Assembly (NCBI GenBank): GCA_029762535.1
Contig: JARVGK010000009.1
Location: 1 to 64,000, forward strand
Length of the DNA stretch: 64,000 nt
Source of the DNA: Thermoplasmatota archaeon
GTDB lineage: Archaea; Thermoplasmatota; Penumbrarchaeia; Penumbrarchaeales; Penumbrarchaeaceae
Direction: 5' to 3'
Shown here: in pieces, positions 39,619 through 63,000 of the stretch
Layout of the letters: each line of letters begins with the position of its first letter
How positions within the stretch are numbered: position 1 is the first letter of the stretch
Program-made: the position numbers and the translations under genes
Notes under the pieces: generated by a model
Told to the model about the DNA's origin: nothing
The model's database searches: none
What the model saw: the letters and a program-made list of their open reading frames with translations, nothing else

Positions 39619-39687
39619 CGGACATGTGCATATATATCAGTTATTGGACGGCCTTCGAAGGATTTAACAGCTTTCGAACAAAAATGA

Positions 39688-42635: not shown

Positions 42636-42676
42636 AATAATCCCCTTGATGCCTGGAATGTATTATCAAATAATAA

Positions 42677-44158: not shown

Positions 44159-44841
44159 CTGTCCCTGAAGCGGTGATAGACGGCAAGGTATCCTGTGAGC
44201 ATGGCGATATTGTAAATGAAGTCCTCGTAAGGGATCGTTATGAATCGCCCCTGCCATGCTCCGTCATCGCCCCATATCGCCTCGTGCCAGTACCATACGA
44301 TCGGGATCGAGGTCAGGATGTAATTGACCGCTATGAAGAGCCCCATGGTGATGGCGATGAATATCAGGAAGCTGCTCGTGGAGAGCATGTTCTTGGAAAG
44401 AAGCGGAGCCCCTATTAGGACGATCCCAAGCGACACGAACGCCGACATGGTGTAGGCCTGATCCCAGAATACCGCCGCAAGGACGAAGGATAACAGGCCC
44501 AGGAGGATGTAGGGCGCGGGATGGAAGGGGATCCTCTTTGAGGGGATATATGCCACTATGCACTCGTAGGTGAATATGCAGGCGTACGGGACCGTCACGA
44601 AGAACAGCGCCTCCTCCAGGGGGATCGAGAGAATATGTATCCCCAGGATGTAATCCTCGCTGAAGCCCCAGTGCCCCTCCTTGGTCATGATCATATCCCA
44701 CAGCACAAAGGGGATCCCCACCGCTATATAGGCGAAGGGCAGCGCCTTCCACTTCTTGTAGAATGCCACCTTCTTGTCGAAGGAGAGCAGGAACGGGAAG
44801 AGTATTACGAGGAAATTGATCAGAAGGTAGAGATAGTTCAT
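44146..44841 (-). CDS. crtY: membrane lycopene cyclase (fused CrtYc/Yd type)
   Basis: Two cyclase repeats: WD..G.W.F...G...IPLEE..FF and N.ILT..IP.EDF.Y; ATGA-coupled to the photolyase. Confidence 0.85.
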   Translation of the reverse strand: MNYLYLLINFLVILFPFLLSFDKKVAFYKKWKALPFAYIAVGIPFVLWDMIMTKEGHWGFSEDYILGIHILSIPLEEALFFVTVPYACIFTYECIVAYIPSKRIPFHPAPYILLGLLSFVLAAVFWDQAYTMSAFVSLGIVLIGAPLLSKNMLSTSSFLIFIAITMGLFIAVNYILTSIPIVWYWHEAIWGDDGAWQGRFITIPYEDFIYNIAMLTGYLAVYHRFRDRWGL

Positions 44842-46199: not shown

Positions 46200-46287
46200 C
46201 CGATGGGAGGGACCCCTCTGCTTGGTAATAATACTTGTCCGGGACCCTCTTCCGGAACAGTTATCTTCATGCGGGAGGATTTCGGGG

Positions 46288-47043
46288 ATGATGAGCTTCA
46301 AGCTGAGGCATCCCAGGGAGCGATCCGATCTGTTCATCGCCGTCATTGCTGCGGGGGTGATGTTCCTCATGCTCAGCGCTCTGACATGGGGCGTATGCTG
46401 TCTATGGGGCGGCATCGGGCTTCTTTTCGTCGCGTTCATGGTCGCTGTCGAGAACTCCCATCTCAGGAACACCGCCAGGCCCTTGGAGGAGGATCCCGTT
46501 CTCGATCGGATGCTGAAGGAGGCGTCCGGGAAGCTGGGGATCGATCCCCCGAAAGCCTACATATCAGGATCGAAAGAGGTGAACGCCTATACCCGGGGTG
46601 TGATCTCGCCCGTGCTCGTTCTGAACCGGGGCTTGATAGACACCATGGACGAGGGCGAGATATCGTTCGTGATGGGACATGAGCTTGGGCATATAAAGCT
46701 GCGGCATTTCGCCATAAGGACGATCCTTGATGCCCGGGTCAGGGTCCCGATCCTGGTCTATCTTCCGCTTCTGCTGTTCCGAATGCTCTTCCTTCGCGGA
46801 AGGCTCTCGAGATCGATGGAGTACTCCGCCGACAGGGCGGGGTTAGCTGCCTGCGGCAGCCTCGAGAAGGCGATATCGACGATGATCAAGCTCGGGACCG
46901 GGAGATCCGTGACCCCGGACCAGGTCCGGGGTGCGATCGACGGTAGCTTTCGGATCGACGGGGAGAAGGGGATCGTGGGAAGGCTCCTGTCGTCGCATCC
47001 CGATCTCGACGATAGGGTGCGGGAGCTGGTGAGATCCCCTTAG
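46288..47043 (+). CDS. M48 family (HtpX-like) membrane zinc metalloprotease
   Basis: VNAY, HELGH, SRSMEYSADR, SHPDLDDR. Confidence 0.9.
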   Translation: MMSFKLRHPRERSDLFIAVIAAGVMFLMLSALTWGVCCLWGGIGLLFVAFMVAVENSHLRNTARPLEEDPVLDRMLKEASGKLGIDPPKAYISGSKEVNAYTRGVISPVLVLNRGLIDTMDEGEISFVMGHELGHIKLRHFAIRTILDARVRVPILVYLPLLLFRMLFLRGRLSRSMEYSADRAGLAACGSLEKAISTMIKLGTGRSVTPDQVRGAIDGSFRIDGEKGIVGRLLSSHPDLDDRVRELVRSP

Positions 47044-47074
47044 GAGGGGGATCCCCACGTCGGATCCGAATGAG
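46992..47074. repeat. 83-bp repeat (3' end of M48 gene plus junction motif), copy 1; copy 2 at 54358-54440
   Basis: 79/83 identity by manual alignment. Confidence 0.9.
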
Positions 47075-47923
47075 TCACAATCCGTCCATGAATTCTTTCA
47101 TCGTGATATATACTTGGGCAATGGCCCTTTCCCTAGCGATCGTATCGAAAGGTTCGATGAAGTTCCCCACCCAATTCGTACCTGCCGCTCTCATGGACCC
47201 GAACCTCTTCCGGATCATATCGACGCTGTCCCTCACCATGGGATCCGTCAAATGTCCTCTTACAAGCCCTGCCACAGCTTTTGGACTATCCATGCAATCC
47301 GCTACCACCGTATAGATGTCGTAAGCATCCTTTTCCTTGTATCGCTCTCCAAGCAGACGGCCCTTCATCCCAAGGCAGCCGGTGATATCCAGCATCCTGA
47401 TCTCCGTCTCTATCTCACCATCGCCGGGAAGGATTCCCTCGATGTTCTTGAAATAATTATACTTGAAGGCAAGGGCACATTCCGGTATCATCCTGGCCCG
47501 CAGGTCCCTGTCGACGACCCTCGTTCTATGCCCTTCTCTGTCGGGATCCATGGTGGTCAGAAAATCGACCTGTATCTCGTATTCTTTTTCTCCTGAGGTA
47601 AGATCTCTGATGAAGCTCGACGGGATCGGTTCTCCGGTCCTGCCCCTCTTCATCCTGTATCCCCTCGACTCGATGATGTCCACGATGTTATGATACAGGT
47701 CTGGATCGCTGCCCGGTTCCACTGCCAGGTCGATGTCGATGGATCCGACATGTTTTATGGTACCCCTGCCATGGTCCTCTAAAAGGAAGTATGGGGCCCA
47801 GCCACCAACGAGAACGATCCTGTCCCTGAAGGAACGCAAGGAGAGAGATAGTTCGACCAGAGCGGACATCGACGCGTTAACCAATTCCAATTCATAATGC
47901 GAAGATGTCCTCATCATGTTCAA
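47075..47923 (-). CDS. AbiEii-like nucleotidyltransferase (type IV TA toxin)
   Basis: VLVGGWAP, GSIDIDL, VDFLT, KEKDAYDIY; coupled to an AbiEi-like gene. Confidence 0.75.
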   Translation of the reverse strand: MNMMRTSSHYELELVNASMSALVELSLSLRSFRDRIVLVGGWAPYFLLEDHGRGTIKHVGSIDIDLAVEPGSDPDLYHNIVDIIESRGYRMKRGRTGEPIPSSFIRDLTSGEKEYEIQVDFLTTMDPDREGHRTRVVDRDLRARMIPECALAFKYNYFKNIEGILPGDGEIETEIRMLDITGCLGMKGRLLGERYKEKDAYDIYTVVADCMDSPKAVAGLVRGHLTDPMVRDSVDMIRKRFGSMRAAGTNWVGNFIEPFDTIARERAIAQVYITMKEFMDGL

Positions 47924-48933
47924 TACCTCAGGAATCTTTCCCTGACCGCTTTCGATTGTTCCCGGCCTCTCATCGGGTACTGGTATAGGTCCATATATAA
48001 TTGGACGTATGAGACGACCGATATCCCTTCGATCGATACTGTGTCGTAAAGTGCTCCCTCATCATAAGGTATGATCAGATTCACGTTTCCCCCGAATTCC
48101 ACTTTTTGCATCTCCAGTACCTTTATGAGTTTTTCAGGATAGTAGGTGTATATATTGAAATCGCTCGATCTGACCATGGGAGCCACAAGGGCCGCAGCGC
48201 ATCCCAATGTCAAGGCGTAATCCGTTTCCGGGATCCCCTTTAACCTATCGTAGATATCCTGAACATCTGTGATCGGGCAGAAGTAACCGATCACATTCTC
48301 ACTTTCGATCCTGTAGATACTCGACCATGCATCGAGGAGTTCGGCCGGTCTGACAAGACGTATGGACGATCTGCTCGCCTCTACGTATCCTTCCTCGGCA
48401 AGTCGCCCGATCTCGTTCGAAGCCAACCCCAAGCTCACGTTCGCCTCTTTTGAAATATCCTCCAATCTCCAGGTCCTATCAGGGTCCGATAGCAGTTTCC
48501 TTACGATCCTGGATGCCTTCCTTGAGAAGATGTTCTTCAGAGTCCTTCTCCGTATTCTCCGGCAACTATCCGTCCTCTTATCTATAATAACGTTCTCGAA
48601 TGAAATGAAAGCGTTCCCGTACATGTCCATATAGCCGAATCCCGCTTCCTTGATCATTTTGGATGCCATCTCGCTGATCATTGGGGCGACGATCACGGCA
48701 TGGTCGTAGTTATCCGTTCCGGTGTTCGTGAGGTCGAAGAGCATTGATTTTATTCTTTGAAGTTGTGATGTCTTAATGATCTTCAACAGTATCCTTTTTT
48801 CAAGGTCCGCTATCTTCAGTACCAACTCAGCGTCGGCACTCCTGCCGCCGATGAGGGCGAATGATGCGATCCGGATGTTGGATATCCCTTTGAATAGATC
48901 GTCCAACCGCTTAATGACATCTTCGTTTCTCAT
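47920..48933 (-). CDS. AbiEi-family antitoxin / transcriptional regulator
   Basis: wHTH (W..EDISKEANVSLGLAS), P.ELLDAW, YALT..AA..AP, VS.VQLYMDL...RGREQ. Confidence 0.8.
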   Translation of the reverse strand: MRNEDVIKRLDDLFKGISNIRIASFALIGGRSADAELVLKIADLEKRILLKIIKTSQLQRIKSMLFDLTNTGTDNYDHAVIVAPMISEMASKMIKEAGFGYMDMYGNAFISFENVIIDKRTDSCRRIRRRTLKNIFSRKASRIVRKLLSDPDRTWRLEDISKEANVSLGLASNEIGRLAEEGYVEASRSSIRLVRPAELLDAWSSIYRIESENVIGYFCPITDVQDIYDRLKGIPETDYALTLGCAAALVAPMVRSSDFNIYTYYPEKLIKVLEMQKVEFGGNVNLIIPYDEGALYDTVSIEGISVVSYVQLYMDLYQYPMRGREQSKAVRERFLRY

Positions 48934-48935
48934 TT

Positions 48936-48953
48936 TTTCAACAGTTGTTGAAA
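48936..48953. promoter_or_regulatory. palindrome TTTCAACA-GT-TGTTGAAA (identical copies at 49051-49068 and 54482-54499)
   Basis: Perfect 8-bp arms; first copy lies 2 bp upstream of the AbiEi ATG. Confidence 0.75.
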
Positions 48954-49168
48954 TTGCTTCCTATTATTAAAACTATCCATATCAAGTGGATATACCGGGT
49001 CCGAATGAGATCCCGGGACAATGGTAATGATCCCTTCGGGATCCGTGTTATTTCAACAGTTGTTGAAAATGGCCAATTCAAATATGGCCATCCAAGATAC
49101 TGATGGATTTCTTCTTGGTCCGCCGGGAATGAAGGTACGTTCAAACAATGCTTCGAATATCTTTTAAT

Positions 49169-49182
49169 ATGTGTAAACACAT
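49169..49182. promoter_or_regulatory. palindrome ATGTGT-AA-ACACAT, putative VapB operator
   Basis: Lies between a TTTTAATA TATA-like box and the antitoxin ATG. Confidence 0.5.
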
Positions 49183-49200
49183 GTAATACTAGGTAATGAC

Positions 49201-49428
49201 ATGGCCAATATGACGATCACCATTCCGAAGGAAATGAAGAACGACCTTGACCTTTTTCCCGAGATCAACTGGTCCGAGGTCGCCAGACAGGCATTCAGGG
49301 AAAAGATCGAGGATCTGAAATTCCTGTTGGAATACAAGAAGAACAGCAGGATGACCGAAGAGGATGCCTTGAGGCTTGGCAAAGAGGTCAACAGATCGCT
49401 TCATAAGCGTTATTCGGAGATGCGGTGA
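49201..49428 (+). CDS. ribbon-helix-helix antitoxin (VapB-like)
   Basis: MANMTITIP..INWSEVARQA pattern; overlaps the PIN gene. Confidence 0.8.
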   Translation: MANMTITIPKEMKNDLDLFPEINWSEVARQAFREKIEDLKFLLEYKKNSRMTEEDALRLGKEVNRSLHKRYSEMR

Positions 49429-49859
49429 TGGACCTTGTATTGGATGCGAATGTCCTGTTCGCGGCCCTGATAAAGGATAATGTCACCGCCGAACTCATGT
49501 TCAAGGATACGATCCATCTATTCGCACCTGAATATCTCCTCGATGAATTTGCCGAGCATAAGGAGGAGATCATCGATAAAACAGATAGGAAAAGAGAGGA
49601 TTTCGACAGGTTCATCGAGATCCTTAAAAAAAGAATAACCTTTCACCCATACGATGATTTCAGTAAATGCCTGGACACGGCATTGAGGATCACTCCGGAT
49701 CCCGATGATGCCGAATATATCGCCCTGGCATTGAGCATCAAAGCGGATATCTGGTCGAATGACAGATCTCTTAAAATTATCAAGGAACTTAAAGTCTATT
49801 CCACTCGGGATATCATCAACATCTTACATGAGTTCGATAAGGGGGGAAATGATCATTGA
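49425..49859 (+). CDS. PIN domain toxin (VapC-like)
   Basis: VLDANVLFAAL, E, DPDDAEYIALAL, IWSND. Confidence 0.88.
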   Translation: MMDLVLDANVLFAALIKDNVTAELMFKDTIHLFAPEYLLDEFAEHKEEIIDKTDRKREDFDRFIEILKKRITFHPYDDFSKCLDTALRITPDPDDAEYIALALSIKADIWSNDRSLKIIKELKVYSTRDIINILHEFDKGGNDH

Positions 49860-49915
49860 CCCGTTCATCACAAGGGACGGCAACGTTTTTATGAGGGCTC
49901 TACATTGATTTCGTT

Positions 49916-52900
49916 ATGGGACAGGCGAGGTCATTGCATGTGGGGATCGTTCTCCTACTTGTCATGAACATGCCTGTATTCGGATCGGGGGATCCCGATC
50001 CCGAAATCACCCGGGAGATCCCCCTACCGATCCCTGGAGACATCTCATCCGCTTTACACTCTTTAGCATCGGATCCCTTCATCGAGAACGGGGGCCAATG
50101 GGATCCCGAGATACTCTTTGTTACATCGACCGATGTGGGTAAAGTTGCTCTATGCAGAGGGGGGATCATCCAACGTGTCATGATTCAAGAGAGGTCTCGA
50201 CCCTCTCCCCAGCTCGACCGACCTCGAAGCACTGTGGCAGATTCGTGCGATATTGGGATCATGTTCGAGGGAGGATCCCCTTCCTTTGTAGTGGGGGAGG
50301 GCCGTGTAGATACCATTTACAATTATTATCTGGGCAATGACTCGTCAAGGTGGGCTACGGATTTGAATGGATACCGAAGCGTCCTCTATGCTGAGGTTTG
50401 GCCTGGTATTGACATTGTCTATCATCAAAGGGGAGGTCGGCTCAAGTATGACATAATTCTCTCCCCCGGAGCTGATCCCGACGAGGTAAAGTTGAAAATC
50501 GATGGAGCGAGATCGGTCCATATCTCAGAAGGATCATTGGTCATCTCTACACCGATTGGGGTGGACCTGATCGATTCGGAACCGATCGCAAATTACGATT
50601 CCGGAGAAAGCGTGGGGGTGGCTCTATCCCTCGATGAGAACGTTTACAGTTTCAATCTCGCTCCCTACGATTATTCCCGATCCGTCGTGATCGATCCGGA
50701 ATATAACGTGAATGCACTGAACTTCTCAACATATATTGGAGGGCGACAAGATGATCAACCTACGAGGATGGATACGGATCGATCAGGGGACATATACATC
50801 GTAGGTGATACTGGTTCTCAAGATTTTCCGCTCAAATATGCTTATCAAAATAGTCTCTTTGGAATTGATGCTTTTATTTTAAAATTGGATAAAGATGGAC
50901 CGGGAATCAAGTATTCCACCTTTATCGGCGGTTCGAGTTACGATATTGCAACCGATATAAAAATAGATTCAAGCGGATGCGCGTTCATCACAGGGAAGAC
51001 GGGTTCTAAAGATTTCCCGGTAACAGCTGGGGCTTACGATAATACTCTTGATTATTATGATCTATTCATCTTGAAATTGAACAATATCGGAAACGGACTA
51101 TTATATTCGACTTACCTGGGTGGATCAGGGGTTGAAGGCTATGGTGCGCGTCCGATCCTTTATTTGGATGAAGGAGATAGGATTTACATTGCATCAAATA
51201 CGAATTCTGACAATTTTCCCGTAACATCCGATGCCTTTCAAGCATCCTTGTCAAGTCCGTTGCAACATGATATGATAATCGTGAAGATGGATCTGTCATC
51301 TATGACCTTGCTCTATTCCACCTATCTTGGGGGAACGGACATGGATTATCCATCTTCCATTGTCGTTGCCAACGGTTACGCGTATATCGGGGGAACGACC
51401 TATTCAAATGATTTCAATGTAACGAGCGGCGCTTATCTGACGAGCAACAGCGGAGGTTCGACGGGTTTCATCCTGAAGTTCGATATGAAGCAGAGATCGC
51501 TCGTTTACTGCACTTATTTTGGGGGATCCGGCGATGATAAATTGAACGACATTGCAGTCGATGTCCAAGGCAATGTGTATGCATGCGGTAACACCGGATC
51601 GATCGATTTACCGGTCCCTTTTACTGCGCTCGGCACCACACTGAATGGGACCAGCGACGGTTTTGTGATGTGCTTGGATCCCAAAGGTAGTGCCCTTTTG
51701 TTCTCCTCTTTCATCGGAGGTAGCGGGGAAGAAGTGTTGAACGCTCTTTTCGTGGACCCCGATTCAAATATCCATCTGATAGGCTATGAGAAGGATCCGG
51801 ATGAAGACGGATTCGATTTCCCCACGATGGCAGGTGTGGTCCAGGAACAGGCAAGAGGGGGCGAAGAAGAGGTTGTTTATGTCAAGCTTGACAGCAATGC
51901 GAGCCATTATCTTTATTCCACGTTCCTCGGTGGAAATGGCGATGATAAGGGATTGGACATATTCGTTGATCCCTCAAGCGGAGAACCTGTCATACTTGGA
52001 TATACTTCATCAAGCAACTTCCCCGTCAAACCAGGGTCATTCGATACATCTTACACTTTTTATGAAATCTTTGTAACGAAGTTCGTCCTGACCTTTCCTC
52101 CGTCCAAGCCCCGGAATTTGGAGTCCAGGTCGGGGGATTCATTTGTCGAACTGAGATGGGATCCCCCTTCCGACGACGGAGGGGCACCGATCATAAAATA
52201 TTCAGTGTGGAGGGGATCACAGGGCGGGAACCTTAGCATGAGATTGGATAATGTCACGTGTCTCACCTATAACGACACGAGTGTGGAGAACGGGCATGTC
52301 TATTATTACGGCGTGAGGGCTCTGAACCGAGCGTGGGAGGGTCCGTTTTCGGACGAGGTTTCATCCTATCCCGTGTCGATTCCGACATCTCCCCGCAACC
52401 TCAGGGTCACTTCTTGGGGAGACGAGGTCCTTGAACTATCATGGATGTATCCGAATTATACCGGAGGGGAGGGCATCCCCATCCGTGGTTACAATCTCTA
52501 CAGGATCGCCGCAGGCGAGCCCGAGCCACTGAAGATATCGATCGATGGTTCATTGCTGCACTATTCCGATGAGAATGTAATGAACGGTGTGAACTACAGT
52601 TACCGTGCTACCGCCTTTAACGATCACGGTGAATCCCCTCCGAGCGATCCCGTGCATGCCGTTCCCATGACGATCCCGACGGGCGTGACTGATCCGTATG
52701 TCTTGTGCGGTAGTCGATTCGCACACCTGTTCTGGGGTCCGCCCGATGACGACGGTGGGAGCCCGATACTGGATTACATGATCTTGAGGGAAGAGGGGCT
52801 CGATAAGAAGCTCATAACGCTGGATGGTAACCATACGGAATACAACGATACGTCCCTCGTCAACGGAAAGAGCTACAACTACACCATCAAGGCTCGGAAC

Positions 52901-54259
52901 GTGGTCGGTTTCGGACCCCTGTCCGATTTCGCGACCTGCGAGCCAATGGGCCGCCCCTCGTCCCCCCGCAGCGTGATACTGGAAGTCCATCCCGGTTCCA
53001 TAACCCTGTCGTGGTTTCCGCCGTCGGACAATGGCGGGTCAGATATAGAGGAATATCTCATTTATCGCTCCATGGACGGATCGGAATGGACGATGATCAT
53101 GTCAGTTCCTTTCACGGACCTCTCATATACTGATAAATGCCTGATCAACGGAAAGACCTATCATTACACTATCACCGTAAAGAACCATTTTCAGGAATCC
53201 GAACCCTCGATCGCTCTGAACGGTACGCCGTTGGACGTTCCCGGGATGCCACCGATGCTGACCCTGACCGCTGGTGACGGTTACGTTCTCCTCAATTGGG
53301 AGACATCAACGATCGATGGCGGAACCCCTATCCTTGGCTTCTGGATACTCCGGGGAAAGAACGAGTCCTCGATGGTATCCATGATCGAGGTCGGAGCCAA
53401 CGTCCTCATGTTCAACGATACGACCGTTGAGAACGGAAAGGAATATCTCTATCAGGTCAAGGCGTTCAATGCGTTCGGGATGGGACGTGGAACCGGGTTC
53501 ATCTCCGCGATTCCTGCAGGCCTTCCGTCACCTCCCGTAATAGTCGTAGTTACATCGGGCGACAGGTTTGTGGAGATAGAATGGTCGGAGCCCCTTGTGA
53601 ACGGCGGCTTTCCGATCAATACGGTTAGAATCTACAAATGGACGGAGAACTCCTCCGCATCAGTGATCCTCAGGACAGATGATGTACAGGGATCGTTCAA
53701 AGACATATCAGTTGAGAACGGGATCACATACATGTATGCTATGAGTTGCGAAAATGATATCGGAGAGGGGTCCAGATCCTGTGTGTTAAATGCAACTCCA
53801 TTAGGACAACCCTCGGCACCGACGAGATTGTCGATCAACCCCCTATCCCCGACCTCGGTTGAGATAAGCTGGGGATCTCCCCAGGACACCGGAGGATCGC
53901 CGATCGTGAGCTATCACATCTACAGGTCGGAGGATTCCGAATCCTGGCGTAAGATCGCTTTTATAAGCGGTGACGAGCTGAATTACACGGATCCCAACCT
54001 GGACTCTGGCAGGGTTTATTGGTACAGGGTTTCGGCCGAGAACGCTCAGGGAGAAGGTCCGCATGGGGAAGAGATATCCATCGAGTTGAAGGAGAGTGGC
54101 GGGTTCTCGGGCATGTATCTCCTGATTGCCGGGGCGGTGCTGTTCCTGATCATTCTCGGGTCCGCGCTGGGGTTGGCCATATTACGAAGGAAAAAAGGAT
54201 CCTTTGAAAGTCCTGCCCCGGGAGAAGTGGAGGCATCACCATGCGATATGGATACTTGA
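49916..54259 (+). CDS. giant surface protein: N-terminal domain, SBBP-type beta-propeller repeats, about 7 fibronectin type III repeats, TM anchor
   Basis: FIENGGQW, YSTYLGG..D repeats with G.T.S.DFP, W.PP.D.GG.PI..Y...Y.D..V.NG..Y.Y repeats, C-terminal TM helix plus RRKK. Confidence 0.88.
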   Translation: MGQARSLHVGIVLLLVMNMPVFGSGDPDPEITREIPLPIPGDISSALHSLASDPFIENGGQWDPEILFVTSTDVGKVALCRGGIIQRVMIQERSRPSPQLDRPRSTVADSCDIGIMFEGGSPSFVVGEGRVDTIYNYYLGNDSSRWATDLNGYRSVLYAEVWPGIDIVYHQRGGRLKYDIILSPGADPDEVKLKIDGARSVHISEGSLVISTPIGVDLIDSEPIANYDSGESVGVALSLDENVYSFNLAPYDYSRSVVIDPEYNVNALNFSTYIGGRQDDQPTRMDTDRSGDIYIVGDTGSQDFPLKYAYQNSLFGIDAFILKLDKDGPGIKYSTFIGGSSYDIATDIKIDSSGCAFITGKTGSKDFPVTAGAYDNTLDYYDLFILKLNNIGNGLLYSTYLGGSGVEGYGARPILYLDEGDRIYIASNTNSDNFPVTSDAFQASLSSPLQHDMIIVKMDLSSMTLLYSTYLGGTDMDYPSSIVVANGYAYIGGTTYSNDFNVTSGAYLTSNSGGSTGFILKFDMKQRSLVYCTYFGGSGDDKLNDIAVDVQGNVYACGNTGSIDLPVPFTALGTTLNGTSDGFVMCLDPKGSALLFSSFIGGSGEEVLNALFVDPDSNIHLIGYEKDPDEDGFDFPTMAGVVQEQARGGEEEVVYVKLDSNASHYLYSTFLGGNGDDKGLDIFVDPSSGEPVILGYTSSSNFPVKPGSFDTSYTFYEIFVTKFVLTFPPSKPRNLESRSGDSFVELRWDPPSDDGGAPIIKYSVWRGSQGGNLSMRLDNVTCLTYNDTSVENGHVYYYGVRALNRAWEGPFSDEVSSYPVSIPTSPRNLRVTSWGDEVLELSWMYPNYTGGEGIPIRGYNLYRIAAGEPEPLKISIDGSLLHYSDENVMNGVNYSYRATAFNDHGESPPSDPVHAVPMTIPTGVTDPYVLCGSRFAHLFWGPPDDDGGSPILDYMILREEGLDKKLITLDGNHTEYNDTSLVNGKSYNYTIKARNVVGFGPLSDFATCEPMGRPSSPRSVILEVHPGSITLSWFPPSDNGGSDIEEYLIYRSMDGSEWTMIMSVPFTDLSYTDKCLINGKTYHYTITVKNHFQESEPSIALNGTPLDVPGMPPMLTLTAGDGYVLLNWETSTIDGGTPILGFWILRGKNESSMVSMIEVGANVLMFNDTTVENGKEYLYQVKAFNAFGMGRGTGFISAIPAGLPSPPVIVVVTSGDRFVEIEWSEPLVNGGFPINTVRIYKWTENSSASVILRTDDVQGSFKDISVENGITYMYAMSCENDIGEGSRSCVLNATPLGQPSAPTRLSINPLSPTSVEISWGSPQDTGGSPIVSYHIYRSEDSESWRKIAFISGDELNYTDPNLDSGRVYWYRVSAENAQGEGPHGEEISIELKESGGFSGMYLLIAGAVLFLIILGSALGLAILRRKKGSFESPAPGEVEASPCDMDT

Positions 54260-54297
54260 ATGAGGTGCCCTGTGCAGAGGGCATCCTTGACCTATGG

Positions 54298-54517
54298 TCC
54301 TTTTCCTTGTTTCGTTCTCTTAGCAGACGCCCCTTCATCCCAAGGAGCCGGTGATATGTCGCATCCCGATCTCGACGATAGAGTGAGGGAGCTGGTGAGA
54401 TCCCCTTAGGAGGGGGATCCCCGCGCCGGATCCGAATGAGATTCCTTGACCACGGCAACGATCCCTTCGGGATCCGTGTTGTTTCAACAGTTGTTGAAAA
54501 TGCTTCCTATTATTAAA
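54298..54517. repeat. mosaic of fragments duplicated from the 47.0-49.1 kb region
   Basis: 54298-54357 matches 47328-47388; 54358-54440 matches 46992-47074; 54460-54502 matches 49029-49071; 54501-54517 equals 48955-48971. Confidence 0.85.
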
Positions 54518-54624
54518 TCTTACAATAACATGTCGTTTCATACGATCCAAAGTATATCATTGATCCTTCACACTCCAATCAGTAAAGGATCGCTCCTAAT
54601 AGCCAGCTATAATGGGATCCCCCA

Positions 54625-55065
54625 TCATTTCTTTATTGATGCGGCCGTCATCAAATGCTCGATCCTTTCTATGAACGAACTGGCCCTCTCCAAGGCATCC
54701 GATGATTCTTCATCATCGGTCCCGAGGGATTCTACACCGTAGAACCATTGATGTCTCTCAAGACGATACGTATCCAGCCACGATATCATATCCAGTCCCA
54801 GATCATCTTTATGTTTTTCCATGAGATAGAGAACTACACAATAATGATTCTTTTCGACGACCCCCTCACTGAAAAGAAGCGATCTTGCCGCTTGGAACAT
54901 AGCTGCATATGATGCGACCACGGATTCGTCGAAGAACCCGCTCTCATTGAGGTCAGCGGCCCTCTGTATTTTCTGGTTTGCCATCTCCATCGATCTTTCC
55001 GACATGGATATGTTGGGATCGACCTTTCTCAACATACGACCCTTGAAACAATCCTCCAACCTCAT
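54625..55065 (-). CDS. HEPN domain protein (toxin of a HEPN/MNT pair)
   Basis: YAAMFQAARSLL...G..KNH, R-x4-Y (RHQWFY), A..FIERI. Confidence 0.85.
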   Translation of the reverse strand: MRLEDCFKGRMLRKVDPNISMSERSMEMANQKIQRAADLNESGFFDESVVASYAAMFQAARSLLFSEGVVEKNHYCVVLYLMEKHKDDLGLDMISWLDTYRLERHQWFYGVESLGTDDEESSDALERASSFIERIEHLMTAASIKK

Positions 55066-55619
55066 AATGCAACCAACCTTTTACCATGGAGCGTGATCCC
55101 ATCCGAAATGACCTCAAGGTAGAAAGCCCTGTTCGTCATTGATTGCTTCTCCCATTCGTCAGGCCTCATCTGAACGATCGAGATCTCCGGTTCGTGGATC
55201 CCTAACGTATCGCGGGCGATCCTCTTCCTTGTCGATGAGATCACAAGCAGATCGATATCGCTTTTCCGATCGTTCTTGCCCGAGGCATAGCTGCCGTAAA
55301 GGACGATAGATATGATCCCTTCGTTCTCTTGGATCAACCTCTGAACGATCCCTCTCTCCTTTACCTTGGCGAGGTTGTATGATATCTTAAGGTACCTCAA
55401 CGTCATGTCATCCAAGTTGGCCCTGAAAAGAGTATGGTTCTTTTCAGCGTACTTGACCACAAGATCGTCCTTTACCAGTATATCGAGGCATCGCTTCACC
55501 GTCATGGGACTCATCTCAAGATTTCTGGCGATCTCCCTGAGGTAGAACCCCTCATAAGGATCTTCGATCAGCCGTGATAGGACCTTGATAGTGTTTATAT
55601 TTTGATACAGTTGTATCAT
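55062..55619 (-). CDS. HTH-fused minimal nucleotidyltransferase (MNT antitoxin)
   Basis: YLREIARNLEMSPMTV HTH; LYGSYASG...SDIDLL; ATGA-coupled to HEPN. Confidence 0.88.
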   Translation of the reverse strand: MIQLYQNINTIKVLSRLIEDPYEGFYLREIARNLEMSPMTVKRCLDILVKDDLVVKYAEKNHTLFRANLDDMTLRYLKISYNLAKVKERGIVQRLIQENEGIISIVLYGSYASGKNDRKSDIDLLVISSTRKRIARDTLGIHEPEISIVQMRPDEWEKQSMTNRAFYLEVISDGITLHGKRLVAL

Positions 55620-55680
55620 AATATGGACATATATGATATGAATAAATATAGTTTTCGTTACCATACTTTCATAAGATCGA

Positions 55681-55720
55681 AGGAGGGGGATCCCCGCGCC
55701 GGATCCGAATGAGATCCCGG
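55681..55720. repeat. junction motif AGGAGGGGGATCCCCGCGCCGGATCCGAATGAGAT(CCCGG)
   Basis: 35 bp identical to 54408-54442; near-identical to 47042-47074; its 3' part matches 48995-49016. Confidence 0.9.
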
Positions 55721-55800
55721 TAGTTACACGATCATATCCGCCATATGTTTGTTAAAAGAACGGGTTAATGTAATATACCGGCCTTCTTCTTTGTATCGAT

Positions 55801-58800
55801 ATGAGGTGTGTGGTCTCGATCAGCATCGCATTGATCATGCTCCTCCTTGTCATGAACATACCTGTGTTCGGATCGGGGGATCCCGATACAGAGATCACCC
55901 AGGATATTCCCCTCCCGATCCCCGGGGATGTCCTGTCCATTGTCAGCTCCCTTGCATCTGGACCTTTCATAGAGAACAGAGGCCAATGGGATCCCTCGAT
56001 ATTATACATGATCTCCAACGAGTACGGGAAGATGGCCCTTGCCAAAGACGGGATCTACCACTGGGTCCACAAATTCGAAAGAAGGGAAACCGATCCCATT
56101 GAGGATGCCCCAGAGTTCGAAATGATCGACTCTTGTCTTATCAAAGCCCTCTTCGAGGGCGGATCCCCTTCCTCCGTCCAGGGAGAGGATCCCGTCCAGA
56201 CGAGTTACAACTTCTTCCTTGGCAACGACAGCTCAAGGTGGGCGTCGGATGTCAGAGGGTATGGATCCGTCCTCTACGAAGACGTTTGGGACGGGATCGA
56301 CATCCATTACTATCAGAAAGAGGGCAGGGTCAAGTATGATCTCCTCCTCTCCCCCGGGGCAGATCCAGATCTGATAAGGATGAGGATCGAGGGGGCGGGA
56401 TCCATACGAAATGATGGTGGCGACCTGATCATATCCACGCCGATAGGAGTGGATCTCCTCGATTCGGGGCTGGTCTCTTATTATACGACGGGGGAGCATA
56501 TTCCATCCTCATTTCTACTCGAGGGGAACATATACGGCTTTGACATCGGACCGTATGATAGGACGAGATCGATCGTGATCGATCCTCTGGTCGCATCCAC
56601 TTATGCGGGTGGAACGGACCGAGATATCGCTAAGAAGGTGATGAGTGATGATGATGGTAATTGGATAGTTGCTGGAGAAACATTTTCAACCGATCTTCCG
56701 GTAACGACGGGTGTGATCCAGTCCATTCATTCCGGAAAAAGAGATTGTGCGATCCTCAAATTCGATCATAGGATGAAGAATTTGATATTCGCTACATATT
56801 ATGGTGGTTCTGATAATGAATTTTTAAATGACATGTCTTTGATCGGAAATGATATAATTATTGGAGGGTACTCAAATTCTTATGATCTTCCTATTACAAA
56901 CGGTTCTTTATATGAGAGTTATAATGGTAATTGGGACGGTTTTCTCGCCAGAATAGATAGTAAAGGATCCAACTTGACGTTCTCAACATATATCGGGGGT
57001 CCAGAATTTGATTCTGTTGAATCTATTAAAGTGAATAATAATAACATGGATATATACATTACCGGAAGAATTAGTTCAAATAATTACCCCATCACGAATA
57101 ATTCAATGTACAAAGAGAATCTATACTATGGTTTCTTATCGATATTATCATCGGATTGTTCGGAATTTATTTATTCTACATATTTTTCTGCTGGATCTTT
57201 TATTGAATTAATGGATAATGGGTATGTGGTCATTGCTGTTTCAAATTCTATACGTGATTATCCTACCACTCCTGGATCATATGATACTACCCATAATGGT
57301 AATGTTGATATTTATATCGCTTGTTTTGATATACAAAATAATTCTTATATATTCGCTACATATATCGGTGGAGTTGAAAATGATATTGTAGTTTCTATGA
57401 ATATTGATATGAACAATAACATATACATAACAGGTACTACATATTCGAATAATTTTCCCGTTACCTCTGACGCATACAGCAGGAAGAAGGATGATACATT
57501 CGTATCCGTACTGAGTTCTGACGGAAAATATCTGCTGCATTCCACGTTCATCGGCGGCAGCGATATAGAGGTCGTCTCTTCGATAGCTTTGGACGGCCAG
57601 GGTTATCCGTTCATAACCGGCTATACCAGGTCCGGGGACTATCCCACGACATGGGGATCCTATGATAGATCCTACAATCAGGGCATTGATTCTTTCATCA
57701 CATCATTTGACAGGAACCTTTCATACCTGCGCTATTCCACATATTTCGGGGGATCGAGCAACGATTATGCATTAGATATCTATATGGACGAACTCGATCA
57801 GGCCGTGATAGCGGGCGAGACCTATTCCTCCGATCTACCAACGGTCTGGGGCTGTTACGATGTGACCTGGAACGGTCATTACGACATGTTCATATCAGTT
57901 ATCAACATCTCGACTCCACCATCCGAGCCCCTATCCTTATCCGGGGACATATCTGACGGATGCATATCCTTGGAATGGGATCCCCCGCTGTCGAATGGCG
58001 GCGCCAACATCACCGGGTACAATATCTATCGTGGTCGTACCGCGGACAACATGTCCTCGGTAGCAAGGGGGGTCCAAACCCTATCATACGATGACAGGAC
58101 CATCGTCAACGGCCGGTCTTATGTTTATCATGTCACGGCCGTGAACGCGGCAGGCGAATCAAACGCCAGCGATAACGTCACGGTGTTCGATGACATGGTT
58201 CCGATCTTCCTGTCCGATCTGACGCCTGAGTCCGTGAACAATGGAGATATGCTCTTTTTCTCCGTGATCGTATCCGACAACGTCCTTGTCACAGAGGTGT
58301 CCCTATCATTTCGGATCGATGATGGGGATTCTGATAAAGTGGATATGGTTCGGGACGGAATATTCTGGAACCATTCGACGACTGTCCCGAACGAGCATAT
58401 CCGCTTTGTTCATTATCGATTCACCGCAGCGGATCCCTCCGGCAATTCCAATTCCACGAAAGAGAAAAGTATACTGATCATCGACTCGGAACCGCCCTTG
58501 CTCCATTCTTTCAATGTCCCCTCTGTCGTCAAGCCCGAGAGGACCGTGTCCCTGGATCTGGCAACGAGCGACAACGTGGGCGTGTTGAGCGCCGAGGTCG
58601 AGCACTGGTACGATGATGTATCCCCGGTGATCTGCCCCCTGGTCCGTAAGGACGGAATGAAATGGGGCTTGAACCTGAGCGCCCCCCCCGTCCAGACAGT
58701 TTGGAGGATCGTCTTTCACTCACATGACGGCACGAACCGTGCCTCATCGGACCTCTTCAACGTCTCCGTTATCGATTCGGATCCGCCAACGTTCCTGGAC

Positions 58801-60051
58801 GATCTCACCCCCTCCGAGATCGAATGCGGCGCATACCTCGAGTTCAAGGCCGTTGTCCTGGACGACGTATCCGTCGGATCCGTTCTTGTGAATTTCAGTC
58901 ACGACGGGAAATTCTGGCAGATCCGTGAGATGGAGCATCTCGGCTCAGACGTCTATTCGTTCTCCATATATGTTAATCCGTCCTTGGAGAGCATACTCTA
59001 CAGTCTTGAGAGTTCGGACATATACGGAAATTCGGATGCTTCCGATGTGAGGACGGTAAATGTGATCGACATCCTCCCTCCGTTCTTTATCGATGACGTA
59101 TCCGACCGTGTTGCGACGACGGGTGACGAATGCCTTCTATCGGTCCGCGCCGTGGACAACATGGGTATATCCAAGCTCAGTGTGTTCTACTGGTATTCTT
59201 TCTCCGAAGTCTTCAGGAAGGACATCACCTCAAGCTTGGTCGATGACCGTTATTCTATGAATATCCGGATCCCGTCAGATTCCGATCGCCCCCTCAACTA
59301 CTACTTCGAGGCAGTTGACCTATCCGGGAACGTCAACAGGACCCCGGATCGGGTCGTCCCGGTCCTGGACGACGATCCCCCTACCATATTCGACCTGAAA
59401 TTCAACGAGACCGCCGGAACGGGCGAATCGTACATGATAACTGCATCTTTCCGGGATAATATAAGGATCGATAGTTATTCTCTTTCAGCATCGATGGGAG
59501 GATCTCCTCTTTCGAACAGGAGCATATCCGGCATGCCGGGTGAGGTCCTCTTCCTTGTGGACATTCCCGTGTACGAAGTGGGCAATCTCACGCTCTTGAT
59601 CGATGTCAGTGACAGGGCCGGTAATGTGAATTCCACCGGTATCATATCTATCCCCGTTCTTGACACGATCCCTCCCCGGATCCCTCTTATGAATTCTTTT
59701 AAGATCAGAAGCGGCGAGACCTTCGAAATATTCGTCAATGCCACAGATAATATCGGGATCGCGAGGATCGAGTGGCAGGGTCTTCCCGAGGAATTCGAGG
59801 GGGATCGCTATCGCGGATCCATAAGTAAGCCTGGATACTACGGTATAATGGTAACCGCTTATGATGAGGCGGGCAATACCGATCTGGTCATTTTCACGAT
59901 AAGGGTCGTCGATGAGGATGTTAATATCAGATTAATCATAATCGGGTTCTCAGCATTCATAGTACTTTCGATCCTAATATATCTCTTCTTTTTCTTCAAA
60001 TTCAGTAAAAGACCGGATAGAAAGAATGATGAGGCCCCTCCTTCTGAGTGA
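55801..60051 (+). CDS. giant surface protein (paralog of 49916-54259): SBBP repeats, one Fn3, Ig-like repeats, TM anchor
   Basis: Near-identical N-terminus LLLVMN.PVFGSGDPD.EIT..IPLPIPGD; STY.GG repeats; D..PP..D / A.D.SGN Ig-like repeats. Confidence 0.88.
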   Translation: MRCVVSISIALIMLLLVMNIPVFGSGDPDTEITQDIPLPIPGDVLSIVSSLASGPFIENRGQWDPSILYMISNEYGKMALAKDGIYHWVHKFERRETDPIEDAPEFEMIDSCLIKALFEGGSPSSVQGEDPVQTSYNFFLGNDSSRWASDVRGYGSVLYEDVWDGIDIHYYQKEGRVKYDLLLSPGADPDLIRMRIEGAGSIRNDGGDLIISTPIGVDLLDSGLVSYYTTGEHIPSSFLLEGNIYGFDIGPYDRTRSIVIDPLVASTYAGGTDRDIAKKVMSDDDGNWIVAGETFSTDLPVTTGVIQSIHSGKRDCAILKFDHRMKNLIFATYYGGSDNEFLNDMSLIGNDIIIGGYSNSYDLPITNGSLYESYNGNWDGFLARIDSKGSNLTFSTYIGGPEFDSVESIKVNNNNMDIYITGRISSNNYPITNNSMYKENLYYGFLSILSSDCSEFIYSTYFSAGSFIELMDNGYVVIAVSNSIRDYPTTPGSYDTTHNGNVDIYIACFDIQNNSYIFATYIGGVENDIVVSMNIDMNNNIYITGTTYSNNFPVTSDAYSRKKDDTFVSVLSSDGKYLLHSTFIGGSDIEVVSSIALDGQGYPFITGYTRSGDYPTTWGSYDRSYNQGIDSFITSFDRNLSYLRYSTYFGGSSNDYALDIYMDELDQAVIAGETYSSDLPTVWGCYDVTWNGHYDMFISVINISTPPSEPLSLSGDISDGCISLEWDPPLSNGGANITGYNIYRGRTADNMSSVARGVQTLSYDDRTIVNGRSYVYHVTAVNAAGESNASDNVTVFDDMVPIFLSDLTPESVNNGDMLFFSVIVSDNVLVTEVSLSFRIDDGDSDKVDMVRDGIFWNHSTTVPNEHIRFVHYRFTAADPSGNSNSTKEKSILIIDSEPPLLHSFNVPSVVKPERTVSLDLATSDNVGVLSAEVEHWYDDVSPVICPLVRKDGMKWGLNLSAPPVQTVWRIVFHSHDGTNRASSDLFNVSVIDSDPPTFLDDLTPSEIECGAYLEFKAVVLDDVSVGSVLVNFSHDGKFWQIREMEHLGSDVYSFSIYVNPSLESILYSLESSDIYGNSDASDVRTVNVIDILPPFFIDDVSDRVATTGDECLLSVRAVDNMGISKLSVFYWYSFSEVFRKDITSSLVDDRYSMNIRIPSDSDRPLNYYFEAVDLSGNVNRTPDRVVPVLDDDPPTIFDLKFNETAGTGESYMITASFRDNIRIDSYSLSASMGGSPLSNRSISGMPGEVLFLVDIPVYEVGNLTLLIDVSDRAGNVNSTGIISIPVLDTIPPRIPLMNSFKIRSGETFEIFVNATDNIGIARIEWQGLPEEFEGDRYRGSISKPGYYGIMVTAYDEAGNTDLVIFTIRVVDEDVNIRLIIIGFSAFIVLSILIYLFFFFKFSKRPDRKNDEAPPSE

Positions 60052-60057: not shown

Positions 60058-63000
60058 TCATAAATACAATTGACGCGCTGGTCCATTATCGATATAAATT
60101 ATCGGTGCGGTTTTCCATTCATCAATAGGGGATGGCCATTTCTTGTTCCAAGGACATACAAACATATCAGAATCTTTATTTGCCAAGCATGCACTGGTAA
60201 AATAAGCGGCTTCATTGAATGATATAATATAATCTATCAGGTATTGATCCCATATAATATCCCTATTATTATTTACTGAACTCACACCATCAGCATTTAA
60301 AACATCTCTGCCCCATGGATCTTCCTGTGTTAGGTGATTCCCTCGGTCCTCCCCAAATAATTCATTTTCTATATAATAATTAGCTTCATTTTCTCCTTTA
60401 ATTCTACTATAGAACATTACATTGTATCTGTATGATGTATCTGTTTCTCTCGATGAAGTCATAATGATCGATGATATTTCTTTTAGGTCATTAACAAAAC
60501 CACCTGAATAGCAGAAATCTAAAAGGAGTATCGATTCTTTATATGAAATATTTTCCAATTCTTCTTTCAAATCTGTATCCCACCAAATGTATTTAAAGAT
60601 TTGAAATCTTCCTCCGACAATACTATCATAATCCAAATCATCAGATAATCCCACATAATCAAATTTCCTGAATGGATCATCTTCAACAAATTCATGCGTT
60701 GCAAAACCTTCGTCAATATCAATATAATCATCAAGATCCTCTATGTATGCTAAACTGAACTCTCCTTGTCGATCCCCTTCTGCATGTATATCGTCTTGAT
60801 TCAAATCAACTCCAGTCAAATGTAATATCCTTGATGTTGAATTGTAATCATAACAATAATGCATAGTATTATTCTCATCGATCCATGCTGCTTTAACTTG
60901 CGCATCCCATTGATCATTACCCATTGGATTATATCCGTTTGTGTGATTTACTTCTCTAAATGTTCCGTTAATATATAATCTCCACCACCATTCATTTAGA
61001 TTTTGTACTAAATATATTTCTTCCATAATACTGTCATGGTTTATGTCGAATAACCAACAAAAATTTGGATCACCTTTAATATCAGGAAATTCTATAGGAT
61101 CGTTATTAAGAGGTATACCTGGACCTACTTGTTCTTGTAATGTCGTCCTCATAAAATAATATAATTCAATGGCAAATTCCTGTTCACTAATATCAGCAAA
61201 ATCTTCATGTTCATCATAATGATTTTCATCACCATTTAAGACGGTCCTACATCTACCATTTCTCCATCCAAAATCCCATTCTTCCGAATTTTTATCCCAA
61301 ATCGAATTATCATTTACATCTCCGTTATATCTAGGATCATCTTTGTAACCAACACCATGATTCCTTAATTCTATAAATATAATGTCATTCTCATCCAATT
61401 TTGGTACTATGTGATACTCGTCTATTCGTTCATTTATTTCGACTCCTCCTTCGTGATATGTAGTTTTTTGATGATATATACATGCGGGACCTCCATATTC
61501 CAATGCATCCAAAATATTTTTTAAACAGCCTTTATATGGACAACCATCCAACCAATAAGCTGTATCAGAACCACTATTTTTATATTTGTTATCATCTGTA
61601 TCATAAATCCACTCACCCTGAAATTCTTCAGGTGTTAGGTCAAAATAAAAGGACATGAATAAAACATCTTCGTCTTTCCAACCATTTGAAGATAAATAAT
61701 GTCTCATCATGGTAATATCATAAGTAAATTGAATTTCTTTAGGATGAAATATAGGTGCCATTAAAATCGCAATTCTAGAATTATGAATCATTGAATTATA
61801 TTGGATCGAATTATATGATCTTGATATTTCATAACAATCAGATATTCCGTCAGAATCTCTATCCTCTCTGAAATTCTTATAACCAGATGTTATAATAACT
61901 TCATCCATAAACCCATGAAAAAATGGTGTTTGATAAATATCCCCCCATATATTATCAGGACATCCTCCAATGTAATATTTATTTATTTCAGTTTGTACTA
62001 AATTTTCTTCAAAAATAATAGGATCATTACCTGAATAATAACAAAAATGTTTTGAATCCCAAAAACCGTTAATATACATATTTATAGTATCGTATAAATA
62101 ATGTGGTGAATTTTTTCCTTCTATTGAATATGCAACATGAGTCCAATCATAATTTTTTGATAAAAAGCCTTTTGAATAAATAATACTTTCTGTTGAAGTT
62201 TGAATATATAACCTATATCTGTTACCCATCTGTTCATATTTTAAACCAAATACAACAGGATAATTTTGATAATTCTCTGATGAATAAGGACAGACAGATA
62301 TAATTTGATCATCGTTGGTATCTATTATTTTTATCCATGCTTCAAATGTATGAACCCTAGGAATAAACACGTTGCCTACAAGATAATCGTTATTAGAATT
62401 AAAAAACACACATTTCCCGTATTTACCATTATTATTAATTGTTGGTCCTTCTCCTATCATGCCGATTTCACAATCTTCGCTAAAATATGAACTATCGATT
62501 GTAATTGATCCATCGTCAAATGTGAAGTGTTGTTTTATTATATTAACTTTCAAGGCATAATTATATATTTCAAAGTTATCTAACATTCCATGATAACCAT
62601 ATTCATTACCTCTACTACCAATAAAAATATCTTCTTCAGCAGGATATAGATTGATCACACCAAGATCCTTGCTTTTATCCAATTGACCATTTATGTATAT
62701 ATAACCCATCTGATCTTTTAATATGAACTGAATTTTATACCATTTCTCCATGGTTAAAGTACTATTTGAGGTTATTGATATTATCTTTCCATAATCGATA
62801 TTACCAATATCTTTTACAACATCGATCTTTAATTTATTATTGTTTGTGATCATTGCTTGAAATTGGCCTGCTCGATATTGTGGATCAATATATAATTGAT
62901 CATTAATATTAGAGAAAATAATTCTATCATTAGAAAACGGTTTTATATCAAATTTCATTGTCATTTCAGATTTAATATTGAAGCTATTATTATATGGTAT

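Follow-up and report, generated by a model that had tools for sequence, protein, structure and literature searches.

Nested direct repeats beside an M48 peptidase gene at the probable edge of a strain-variable island in a Thermoplasmatota archaeon

The stretch of DNA analyzed here (the window) comprises the first 64 kb of the 105,758-nt contig C102 in the metagenome-assembled genome (MAG) of an uncultured Thermoplasmatota archaeon (2,963,565 bases in 102 contigs, 53% GC), and the element under study is a short sequence motif that recurs in it beside toxin-antitoxin (TA) genes. The motif is first encountered at the 3' end of a gene for an HtpX-like M48 peptidase (46288..47043, plus strand; Pfam Peptidase_M48, 91 bits), whose 251-residue form starting at 46288 is the form on the public record. 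Just past the stop codon of this gene, at 47.2 kb, the GC content falls from 57-60% to 45-50%. Beyond it lie, in order, an AbiE-like TA pair, a VapBC pair, the surface protein SBBP1, a HEPN/MNT pair (MNT, minimal nucleotidyltransferase) and a second surface protein, SBBP2. Pfam searches bear out the initial annotation in this gene content, in the placement of the AbiE-like and HEPN/MNT pairs on the minus strand and in the presence of two SBBP proteins of about 1,400 residues. The same annotation had proposed that the motif is the recombination site of an undescribed system, which shuffles TA cassettes and stabilizes a variable array of adhesins.

The motif core, CGGNTCCGAATGAG, is matched exactly at 47061, 48996, 54427 and 55700, all four times on the plus strand, as had been reported. 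A longer form, AGGAGGGGGATCCCC.CG.CGGATCCGAATGAG, is present at 47042-47074, 54408-54440 and 55681-55713 (the latter two reach 54445 and 55718 in the long form of the motif), and copy 2 (48995-49016) contains the 3' part of the motif only. Motif searches covered the archaeon's own genome, 185,579 species genomes, the JGI metagenomes and 40 relatives. Relatives located via the M48 protein are MAGs labelled Thermoplasmatota. The genome-wide search that the initial annotation had called for returned the 15-nt core, with at most one mismatch, at only these four sites in 2,963,565 bases; their clustering is not due to chance. No 26-nt degenerate form of the motif was found in the 185,579 species genomes or in the JGI metagenomes, and the 14-nt core gave three single matches among the 40 relatives, of which the one inspected (G002) lies inside a coding sequence.

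The copies are not equivalent units, although they had been described as one recurring repeat: all four are co-oriented, but they extend over 15, 40 or 83-145 nt. Their build is best followed by naming the pieces that they share. The piece m is the last 50 nt of the M48 gene (46992-47041), r5 (47042-47059) and r3 (47060-47074) are the first and second parts of the sequence that flanks it and together form R, z (49010-49048) is the flank that follows r3, x is a palindrome, TTTCAACAGTTGTTGAAA, that is present in three copies, and y is a TATA-like stretch after the first of these (x1). Copy 1 (46992..47074, plus strand; repeat families D6, D9 and D13, with a fold) has the build m-r5-r3, m being followed by the native 3' flank R, and the end of the AbiE toxin gene comes directly after it: the stop codon of that gene (47075-47077) abuts the copy, as initially noted. 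Copy 2 (48995..49071, plus strand) reads y-r3-z-x, with r3 alone of the motif (48995-49009), then z and the second palindrome x2 (49049-49071); it belongs to family D8 and is 88% identical to 54426-54502. Copy 3 (54358..54502, plus strand) reads m'-r5-r3-z'-x-y', in which m' spans 54358-54407, R 54408-54440, z' 54441-54478 and x3 54479-54502. Copy 4 (55681..55720, plus strand; family D9, 97%) amounts to 40 nt only, made up of r5-r3 and the first 7 nt of z, and lies where the MNT and SBBP2 promoters diverge; over its first 35 nt it does not differ from copy 3. Copies 1 and 3 share the final 50 nt of the M48 coding sequence as well (83 nt, 95%), and copies 2 and 3 share an additional 62 nt downstream.

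Two short dyads had been recognized in the motif. The first, GGGGATCCCC, is a palindrome that is over-represented throughout the genome (115 copies compared with ~4 expected), and it therefore carries no locus-specific information, which is confined to the second half of the motif (...CGCGCCGGATCCGAATGAG). Within the window, examples of GGGGATCCCC stand at 38287, 44710, 45915, 47047, 54413 and 55686. The genome as a whole has a marked word bias, with GATC 2.7-fold, GGATCC 4.5-fold and GATCCC 5.2-fold over-represented and CTAG 9-fold under-represented, and hairpins of the type GAGATCCCC...GGGGATC recur between genes, for example at 50.7 and 52.1 kb of contig C25 around a HEPN/MNT paralog. Just past the M48 stop codon, the core and the 7 nt after it make up an imperfect dyad, CCGGATC-CGAATGA-GATCCCGG, whose halves are separated by a 7-nt spacer. 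That stop codon (47041-47043) is located in the loop of a 9-bp hairpin, the 3' arm of which is the start of the motif, and further hairpins lie within r3-z. On the plus strand, the copies fold no better than shuffled controls (z-scores of 0.06 to -1.5). A search of Rfam at the locus gave no match and no tRNA is encoded nearby, which rules out a tRNA or a known RNA as the target or as the motif.

The AbiE module occupies 1,935 bp (47075-49009) and is bounded by a 15-bp direct repeat, CCGGRTCCGAATGAG. Virtual removal of 47075-49009 leaves a sequence that is identical to 54358-54502 at 133 of 145 positions (92%), compared with 73% when the module is left in place. Since this excision restores collinearity, copy 3 is an uninterrupted M48 flank (an 'empty site'), the AbiE module is an insertion, and copy 2 is the right half of the flank that it interrupts. 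No terminal inverted repeats were found at the module's ends (47075 and 48994) and Cas1 is encoded on contig C5 only, so that insertion as a transposon or casposon is ruled out. With a filled insertion site and its empty counterpart in a single genome, the order and mechanics of the island's growth can be read directly.

The empty site is part of a 260-nt mosaic (54298-54558) that is composed of four pieces of 46992-49071 in permuted order. At its left end is a decayed internal fragment of an AbiEii toxin gene (54298..54357, minus strand), which is homologous to 47328-47390 with a 1-nt deletion (blastn, 87% over the 77 nt of 47328-47404). The fragment meets the M48 tail at a microhomology, GCATCCYGATCTC, that matches both parent sequences at 13 of 14 positions. 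The tail itself, m', encodes the same residues as the M48 gene at 16 of 16 positions (tblastn), and both of its nucleotide differences are synonymous. At the other end, y' (54503..54540, minus strand; family D10) continues from x3 and is a relic of the AbiE TATA region; 54479-54558 is 77% identical to 48933-49012, most strongly in the first 15 nt past x. Every join in the mosaic falls at a sequence that is present twice in 46992-49071, namely the 13/14-nt microhomology, the 15-nt r3 and the 23-nt AbiEi operator described below. Insertion of cassettes at the motif, as initially claimed, holds for the AbiE module, which lies between 15-bp repeats and has an empty-site counterpart, but not for the two joins in copy 3 that are located at the microhomology and at the operator. 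The mosaic is compatible with more than one exact sequence of steps.

Three blocks, each flanked by direct repeats that include r3, are delimited in this way. Block A is the AbiE module (47075-49009) between its 15-bp repeats. Block B (49072-54357, 5.3 kb) contains VapBC, SBBP1, 38 nt and the AbiEii fragment, and is flanked by 145-nt repeats (m-r5-r3-z-x) that are 92% identical, the left copy having later been split by block A. Block C (54441-55680) contains the AbiE promoter relic and the HEPN/MNT genes between repeats of 38-40 nt that are 97% identical. The divergence between the two 145-nt copies is uneven, amounting to 4% in m, 6% in R and 18% in z, which suggests that they are two alleles that evolved while attached to working M48 genes and that a related lineage supplied the incoming DNA from this same locus; the two synonymous differences in the tail, with all 16 residues preserved, fit alleles that diverged in this manner.

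Recognition of x as a regulatory element helps in reading the mosaic. The first gene of the AbiE operon encodes an AbiEi-type antitoxin and repressor (47920..48933, minus strand, 337 residues; Pfam AbiEi_2, PF09952, 26.6 bits compared with a cut-off of 21), homologues of which are patchily distributed (22 of 401 genomes of the phylum). The second encodes an AbiEii-like (DUF1814-type) nucleotidyltransferase toxin (47075..47917, minus strand, 280 residues), which scores 16.6 bits against Pfam AbiEii (PF08843), under the cut-off of 22.5, as its homologues likewise do. The best matches of its AlphaFold model (pLDDT confidence 90.8) are MenT1, JHP933, MenT4 and MenT3/TglT (probability 0.99-1.0, TM-score 0.37-0.51), and the GS..D.D nucleotidyltransferase motif is invariant in seven toxin homologues. 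In the promoter (48934..48994, minus strand), the palindrome x1 (TTTCAACA-GT-TGTTGAAA, 48936-48953) abuts the AbiEi start and is followed by the TATA-like box y. In eight of 10 distant Thermoplasmatota AbiE loci (L032-L042), a palindrome of the form TTTCAMC-N4-GKTGAAA follows a TATA-like box and lies ~20 nt upstream of the AbiEi start, and a ninth has an imperfect copy; in the window it occurs at 48936-48953, 49051-49068 and 54482-54499, the second copy at the AbiE locus being 115 nt upstream. Published AbiEi proteins regulate their own expression by binding at the promoter's inverted repeats, and in a mycobacterial case two sets of repeats lie within 131 nt (PMC7319586). The palindrome x is thus the predicted AbiEi operator, and because it is a conserved operator, the x-y' stretch to the right of copy 3 would be a dead AbiE promoter. 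The module shares with type IV AbiE systems a two-gene operon of an AbiEi_2 antitoxin and a predicted DUF1814-fold nucleotidyltransferase toxin (PMC7319586; PMC3985639), as well as a palindrome next to the antitoxin start that recurs ~115 nt upstream, closely resembling the two repeat sets of Rv2827c. It differs in having an archaeal, leaderless-type promoter with a TATA box and a toxin under the Pfam AbiEii cut-off. The locus yields a conserved candidate operator palindrome for an archaeal AbiEi family.

No second species of the same genus is present in the genome set, in which the nearest M48 orthologues are 63-65% identical. A sister strain was compared through exact-protein look-ups in the ENA and Logan assemblies, with a partner defined by at least 90% amino acid identity. 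In this strain, M48 and all seven genes upstream of it are found at 92-97.5% identity on one 7,841-nt contig that extends at most 485 nt beyond M48. No partner was found in these look-ups for VapC, SBBP1, SBBP2 or the LamG protein encoded after SBBP2, and six of the seven genes looked up at 66-77 kb also had none. Because the sister strain shares the upstream genes but has no partners for VapC, SBBP1 and SBBP2, M48 is the conserved core gene that immediately precedes the variable region, and its stop codon is the left edge; the missing partners mark the region as, most likely, a large strain-variable island that starts at the M48 stop. The M48 proteins of the sister strain (P0002 and P0004) end in ...VRSQ, compared with ...VRSP here, and divergence between the strains seems to begin at the last M48 codon, inside the hairpin that spans the stop. 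Two of the modules inside the island do have partners, and they are not equally diverged. The AbiE toxin is 99.3% and the antitoxin 98.5-98.8% identical, on a separate 2,477-nt contig; together they differ at 6 of 617 residues, whereas four core genes differ at 47 of 1,423 (Fisher p=0.002) and the remaining three are more diverged still. MNT, at 96.2%, is core-like; it is encoded with the split HEPN gene on a contig of 1,534 nt. The claim that the modules are of different evolutionary age between strains is supported by this unevenness, and the AbiE module looks to have been shared more recently than its surroundings.

Comparison with more distant relatives bears on the origin of the motif. 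M48 orthologues in the same family are 41-65% identical. In the nearest genus (M48 65% identical) the neighbors of M48 differ, an SBBP homologue lies upstream on the opposite strand and the genes downstream of M48 map to contig C42 in the present genome, and an attempt to define the island by synteny with relatives failed for this reason. Among the five related M48 loci with downstream sequence, none contains a second copy of its own M48 tail or flank, and M48 is therefore not a recurrent target in the sampled relatives; a 40-residue M48 fragment in G015, considered as a second duplicated tail, is merely a gene cut by a contig end. On sequence grounds, the motif is the native 3' flank of the M48 gene, and its anchoring at the 3' end of that gene, as initially described, is of this kind. 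Homology of R to the M48 flank in other genera is limited to one 11-nt match, ATCCGAATGAG, in locus L014 (genus g6), which is borderline after correction (p ~0.003 before correction for 11 loci). It lies ~70-80 nt past the M48 stop, corresponds to 47063-47074 and 55702-55720 in the window and spans the start codon of the secreted-protein gene after M48 (MRHR..., with MRSR... in sister loci); ATGAGATCCCGG in the window likewise encodes MRSR. The core may be a relic of the start of an ancestral gene downstream of M48.

We regard it as somewhat probable, and as the best explanation of the structure, that the repeats are accretion scars at the edge of the island, left by serial single-crossover (Campbell-type) insertions into the M48 3' flank. 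In such a process, each insertion would duplicate whatever stretch the incoming DNA had in common with its target. Block B would have arisen when a circular DNA with a copy of the M48 tail and flank recombined once with the chromosomal flank, and the joint at which this circle had been closed would be the microhomology junction between the AbiEii fragment and the M48 tail, beside the right-hand repeat. Block A would later have split the left 145-nt copy, and decay and rearrangement at short homologies would have followed accretion. This account supposes that circular DNA arrived from the corresponding locus of a related lineage; that, in the AbiE event at least, the dyad CCGGATC-CGAATGA-GATCCCGG was an att-like point of crossover, acted on by a recombinase that is unlinked or has been lost; and that the TA modules persist by being addictive or defensive. 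The filled and empty sites, the nested repeats, the microhomology joint, the identity of the operator and the uneven divergence between strains are shown by the analysis, and no dedicated, currently active cassette machinery is needed to account for them.

Several observations weigh against serial single-crossover accretion. Neither the blocks nor the rest of the contig contain an integrase gene or a relic of one, and the 185,579 species genomes and the JGI metagenomes yielded no attP-bearing element. Ordinary homologous recombination requires more than the 15 bp of the repeat around AbiE. Neither the origin of z nor the AbiE operator already present in the 'empty' flank can be accounted for without assuming an additional round of AbiE gain and loss, and since the AbiEii fragment is without the 3' part of the gene, a further deletion is required. 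Finally, the lower divergence of AbiE refers to protein identity only and could reflect selection.

A rather unlikely alternative, though the most serious one, dispenses with site specificity: illegitimate or short-homology recombination, or template switching during replication, within one locus would have produced the structure by copying parts of the M48 flank and of the AbiE module, with the 15-bp repeat as a by-product. It accords with the finding that every join in the mosaic falls at a sequence occurring twice in 46992-49071, with the wide variation in repeat length and the lack of a nearby recombinase, and with the commonness of GGATCC-type words, among which short matches arise easily. 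However, the repeats are diverged by 4-18% depending on the segment, with only synonymous changes in the coding part, which fits import from another lineage better than copying in place; between the strains, AbiE shows a four- to fivefold lower divergence than the core genes that flank it; and a clean pair of filled and empty sites with a 15-bp repeat is the classic signature of an insertion.

It is improbable that R is, as initially proposed, the att site of an undescribed and active system that moves integrase-less TA cassettes beside M48, for example driven in trans by the Xer-like recombinase of the integron-like array on contig C25. Four copies share one 14-nt core in one orientation, the imperfect dyad with its 7-nt spacer resembles the core site of a tyrosine recombinase, and the AbiE module, bounded by the core, looks recently exchanged between strains. 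The initial annotation had reported no integrase in the window and asked for a co-occurring recombinase. Profile searches for five families, Phage_integrase (PF00589), Resolvase, OrfB_IS605, DDE_Tnp_1 and Cas1, gave no match anywhere on the 106-kb contig C102, and so extend its observation on integrases to the whole contig; elsewhere the genome encodes tyrosine recombinases (C25 and C53), a serine recombinase (C58) and Cas1 (C5). A motif that is confined to this locus in all data searched, on a contig without a recombinase, in copies of unequal extent and next to a gene whose orthologues in five relatives are without a duplicated 3' end, argues against such a system. In addition, copies 3 and 4 are complete target-type sites rather than hybrid junctions, and the cargo is in mixed orientation and includes 4.3-kb genes. 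The genome has integron-like att sites of its own (AAC..GAAGTT..AATTTGGGT..GTT), at 85-96 kb of C25 and on C6 beside a VapBC paralog; R does not resemble them, and the pattern is absent from 44-64 kb of C102, so that an integron-like array at this locus is excluded. R contains no AAC/GTT cores, as expected from the earlier statement that the motif lacks attC consensus ends, and no fold of R stands out from shuffled controls. Equally doubtful is the narrower proposal that the dyad CCGGATC-CGAATGA-GATCCCGG is the core site of an unrecognized trans-acting recombinase that moves minimal TA modules, such as the 1.9-kb AbiE module, between strains; were it true, it would represent an archaeal 'att-bounded TA cassette' system distinct from integrons.

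Very little speaks for an assembly artefact, in which two strain alleles downstream of M48 were concatenated in the contig. The MAG is in 102 contigs and a related strain is present in public assemblies, and a 36-nt exact repeat inside copies 1 and 3 cannot be phased by a k=31 graph, which also allows an 'empty chromosome plus 7,366-bp circle'. In the Logan assemblies, M48 and SBBP1 are encoded, as exact proteins, by contigs of 7,675 and 7,390 nt, the lengths predicted for the k=31 unitigs 39376-47050 and 47027-54416, both of which are bounded by this repeat. The junction at 54357/54358 is located inside the 7,390-nt unitig, of exactly the predicted size and from a second assembler, and is therefore not a product of the MAG assembler. 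Moreover, the AbiEii fragment and the M48 tail overlap by 13 of 14 nt, far under any assembler's k, and reads of at least 100 nt span the 36 nt together with distinguishing bases on both sides (G, C at 47016/47020 on the M48 side and G, C at 54423/54426 on the copy 3 side). The k=31 assembly also breaks at 38795-39375, just upstream of a carotenoid/photolyase operon, where stretches of 119 nt and of 68 nt are each repeated exactly at a spacing of 207. It is just as unlikely that R is a functional cis-element (a terminator, RNA motif or protein-binding site) kept by selection: the strong hairpin across the M48 stop codon, the additional hairpins in r3-z and the frequency of similar GGGGATCCCC hairpins in intergenic DNA of the genome would suit such a role, but the plus-strand fold energies and the Rfam search do not support it, the copies stand in unrelated gene contexts (convergent, upstream and divergent gaps) and the co-duplicated coding tail and gene fragment would be left unexplained.

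If serial accretion is correct, the structure would be of a known kind, namely islands or cis-mobilizable elements (CIMEs) arrayed in tandem where a target gene ends, on a miniature scale and with an archaeal host. Tandem islands that are bounded by copies of the 3' end of the target gene, many of them without integration genes, are well documented (PMC5704250; PMC3146451). As in the ICESt1/ICESt3-type elements and the ssrA islands of Dehalococcoides, co-oriented repeats from the 3' end and flank of one gene delimit accessory blocks at this locus; in those arrays, too, many blocks are without integration genes, TA cargo is common and the array lies at the edge of a strain-variable region (PMC5704250; PMC3146451). 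In contrast to them, the contig has neither an integrase nor a relic of one, the blocks, at 1.2-5.3 kb, are very small, the repeats differ in length (15, 40 and 145 nt), a gene fragment is joined at a microhomology in one junction, the sampled relatives do not use this target and the host is a Thermoplasmatota archaeon. The likeness to integrons, or to clusters of attC sites lacking integron integrases (CALINs), archaeal ones included, lies in a co-oriented sequence that recurs between accessory and TA genes (Ghaly et al. 2022, PMC9668308), and TA cassettes are thought to stabilize integron arrays. These elements are identified by an IntI next to the array or by clustered attC sites (PMC9668308), and their cassettes are short and mostly co-oriented. 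Here the contig encodes no IntI, attC-type folded sites are absent, genes of up to 4.3 kb lie in both orientations, with VapBC and the SBBP genes on the plus strand and the AbiE and HEPN/MNT pairs on the minus strand, and the repeat is the flank of a gene rather than a site carried by the cassette. The sharp switch at the M48 stop, the lower GC content and the combination of TA or defense modules with surface proteins are also typical of flexible islands and defense hotspots beside core genes, which are usually defined across many genomes and here by one sister strain, through protein look-ups only. The locus gives no evidence for a new recombination system; it provides a worked example, and a caution that a repeat bounding cassettes can be the duplicated flank of the target gene. 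It also presents TA modules and a surface-protein gene stacked beside one core gene in an uncultured Thermoplasmatota archaeon, with a toxin gene and its promoter decayed in place.

The remaining genes of the island are consistent with piecemeal growth in one respect, in that the surface proteins on either side of copy 3 are not each other's closest relatives. SBBP1 (49916..54259, plus strand, ~1,440 residues; Pfam DUF7948, SBBP and five fn3 domains) and SBBP2 (55801..60051, plus strand, 1,416 residues; Pfam DUF7948, SBBP and fn3) are 37-39% identical over ~820 residues, and hence no TA-adhesin unit was duplicated. The closest paralogs of SBBP1 are encoded on C4 (43% over 1,352 residues), C60 and C43, at least six on other contigs are closer to it than SBBP2, and the family has many members scattered across the genome; the proposal that the modules stabilize a variable adhesin array at this locus does not survive this finding. 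The motif proved to be confined to its four copies, part of what the initial annotation had named as fatal to its proposal, but another part, one old tandem duplication of a unit of TA and SBBP genes, fails to explain the copies and is rejected, as the SBBP proteins are so dissimilar and have closer paralogs elsewhere while the repeats are 88-97% identical. SBBP2 has an AT-rich central segment, with GC down to 31% at 56.8-57.4 kb, and shares exact stretches of 39 nt (56019-56057) and 77 nt (56509-56585) with paralogs on C59 and C66, which suggests patchy gene conversion among the surface-protein paralogs.

The VapBC pair (49201..49859, plus strand) consists of a 75-residue VapB-like protein and a 143-residue VapC with a PIN domain (Pfam PIN_2, PF10130, 84.7 bits), and paralogous pairs are present on C6 and C25; the VapB-like open reading frame (ORF) overlaps the start of the toxin gene, and the antitoxin matches no family. 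In the HEPN/MNT pair, the HEPN-domain protein, the toxin half (54625..55065, minus strand; Pfam HEPN, PF05168, 42.9 bits), is preceded by a protein with a winged helix-turn-helix and an MNT domain (55062..55619, minus strand; Pfam NTP_transf_2, PF01909, 41.3 bits; PADLOC PDC-M05A, E=7e-20), the 185-residue form of which is the one on record; the two genes overlap by 4 nt. HEPN of the sister strain is called as two ORFs of 61 and 65 residues (P0024 and P0025, covering residues 1-61 and 82-146), and the gene is probably broken there, its MNT partner being intact. Beyond SBBP2, an AT-rich (27-34% GC) LamG/C13-like gene fills 60058-64000 and continues to position 65559 of C102, its full ORF encoding 1,833 residues.

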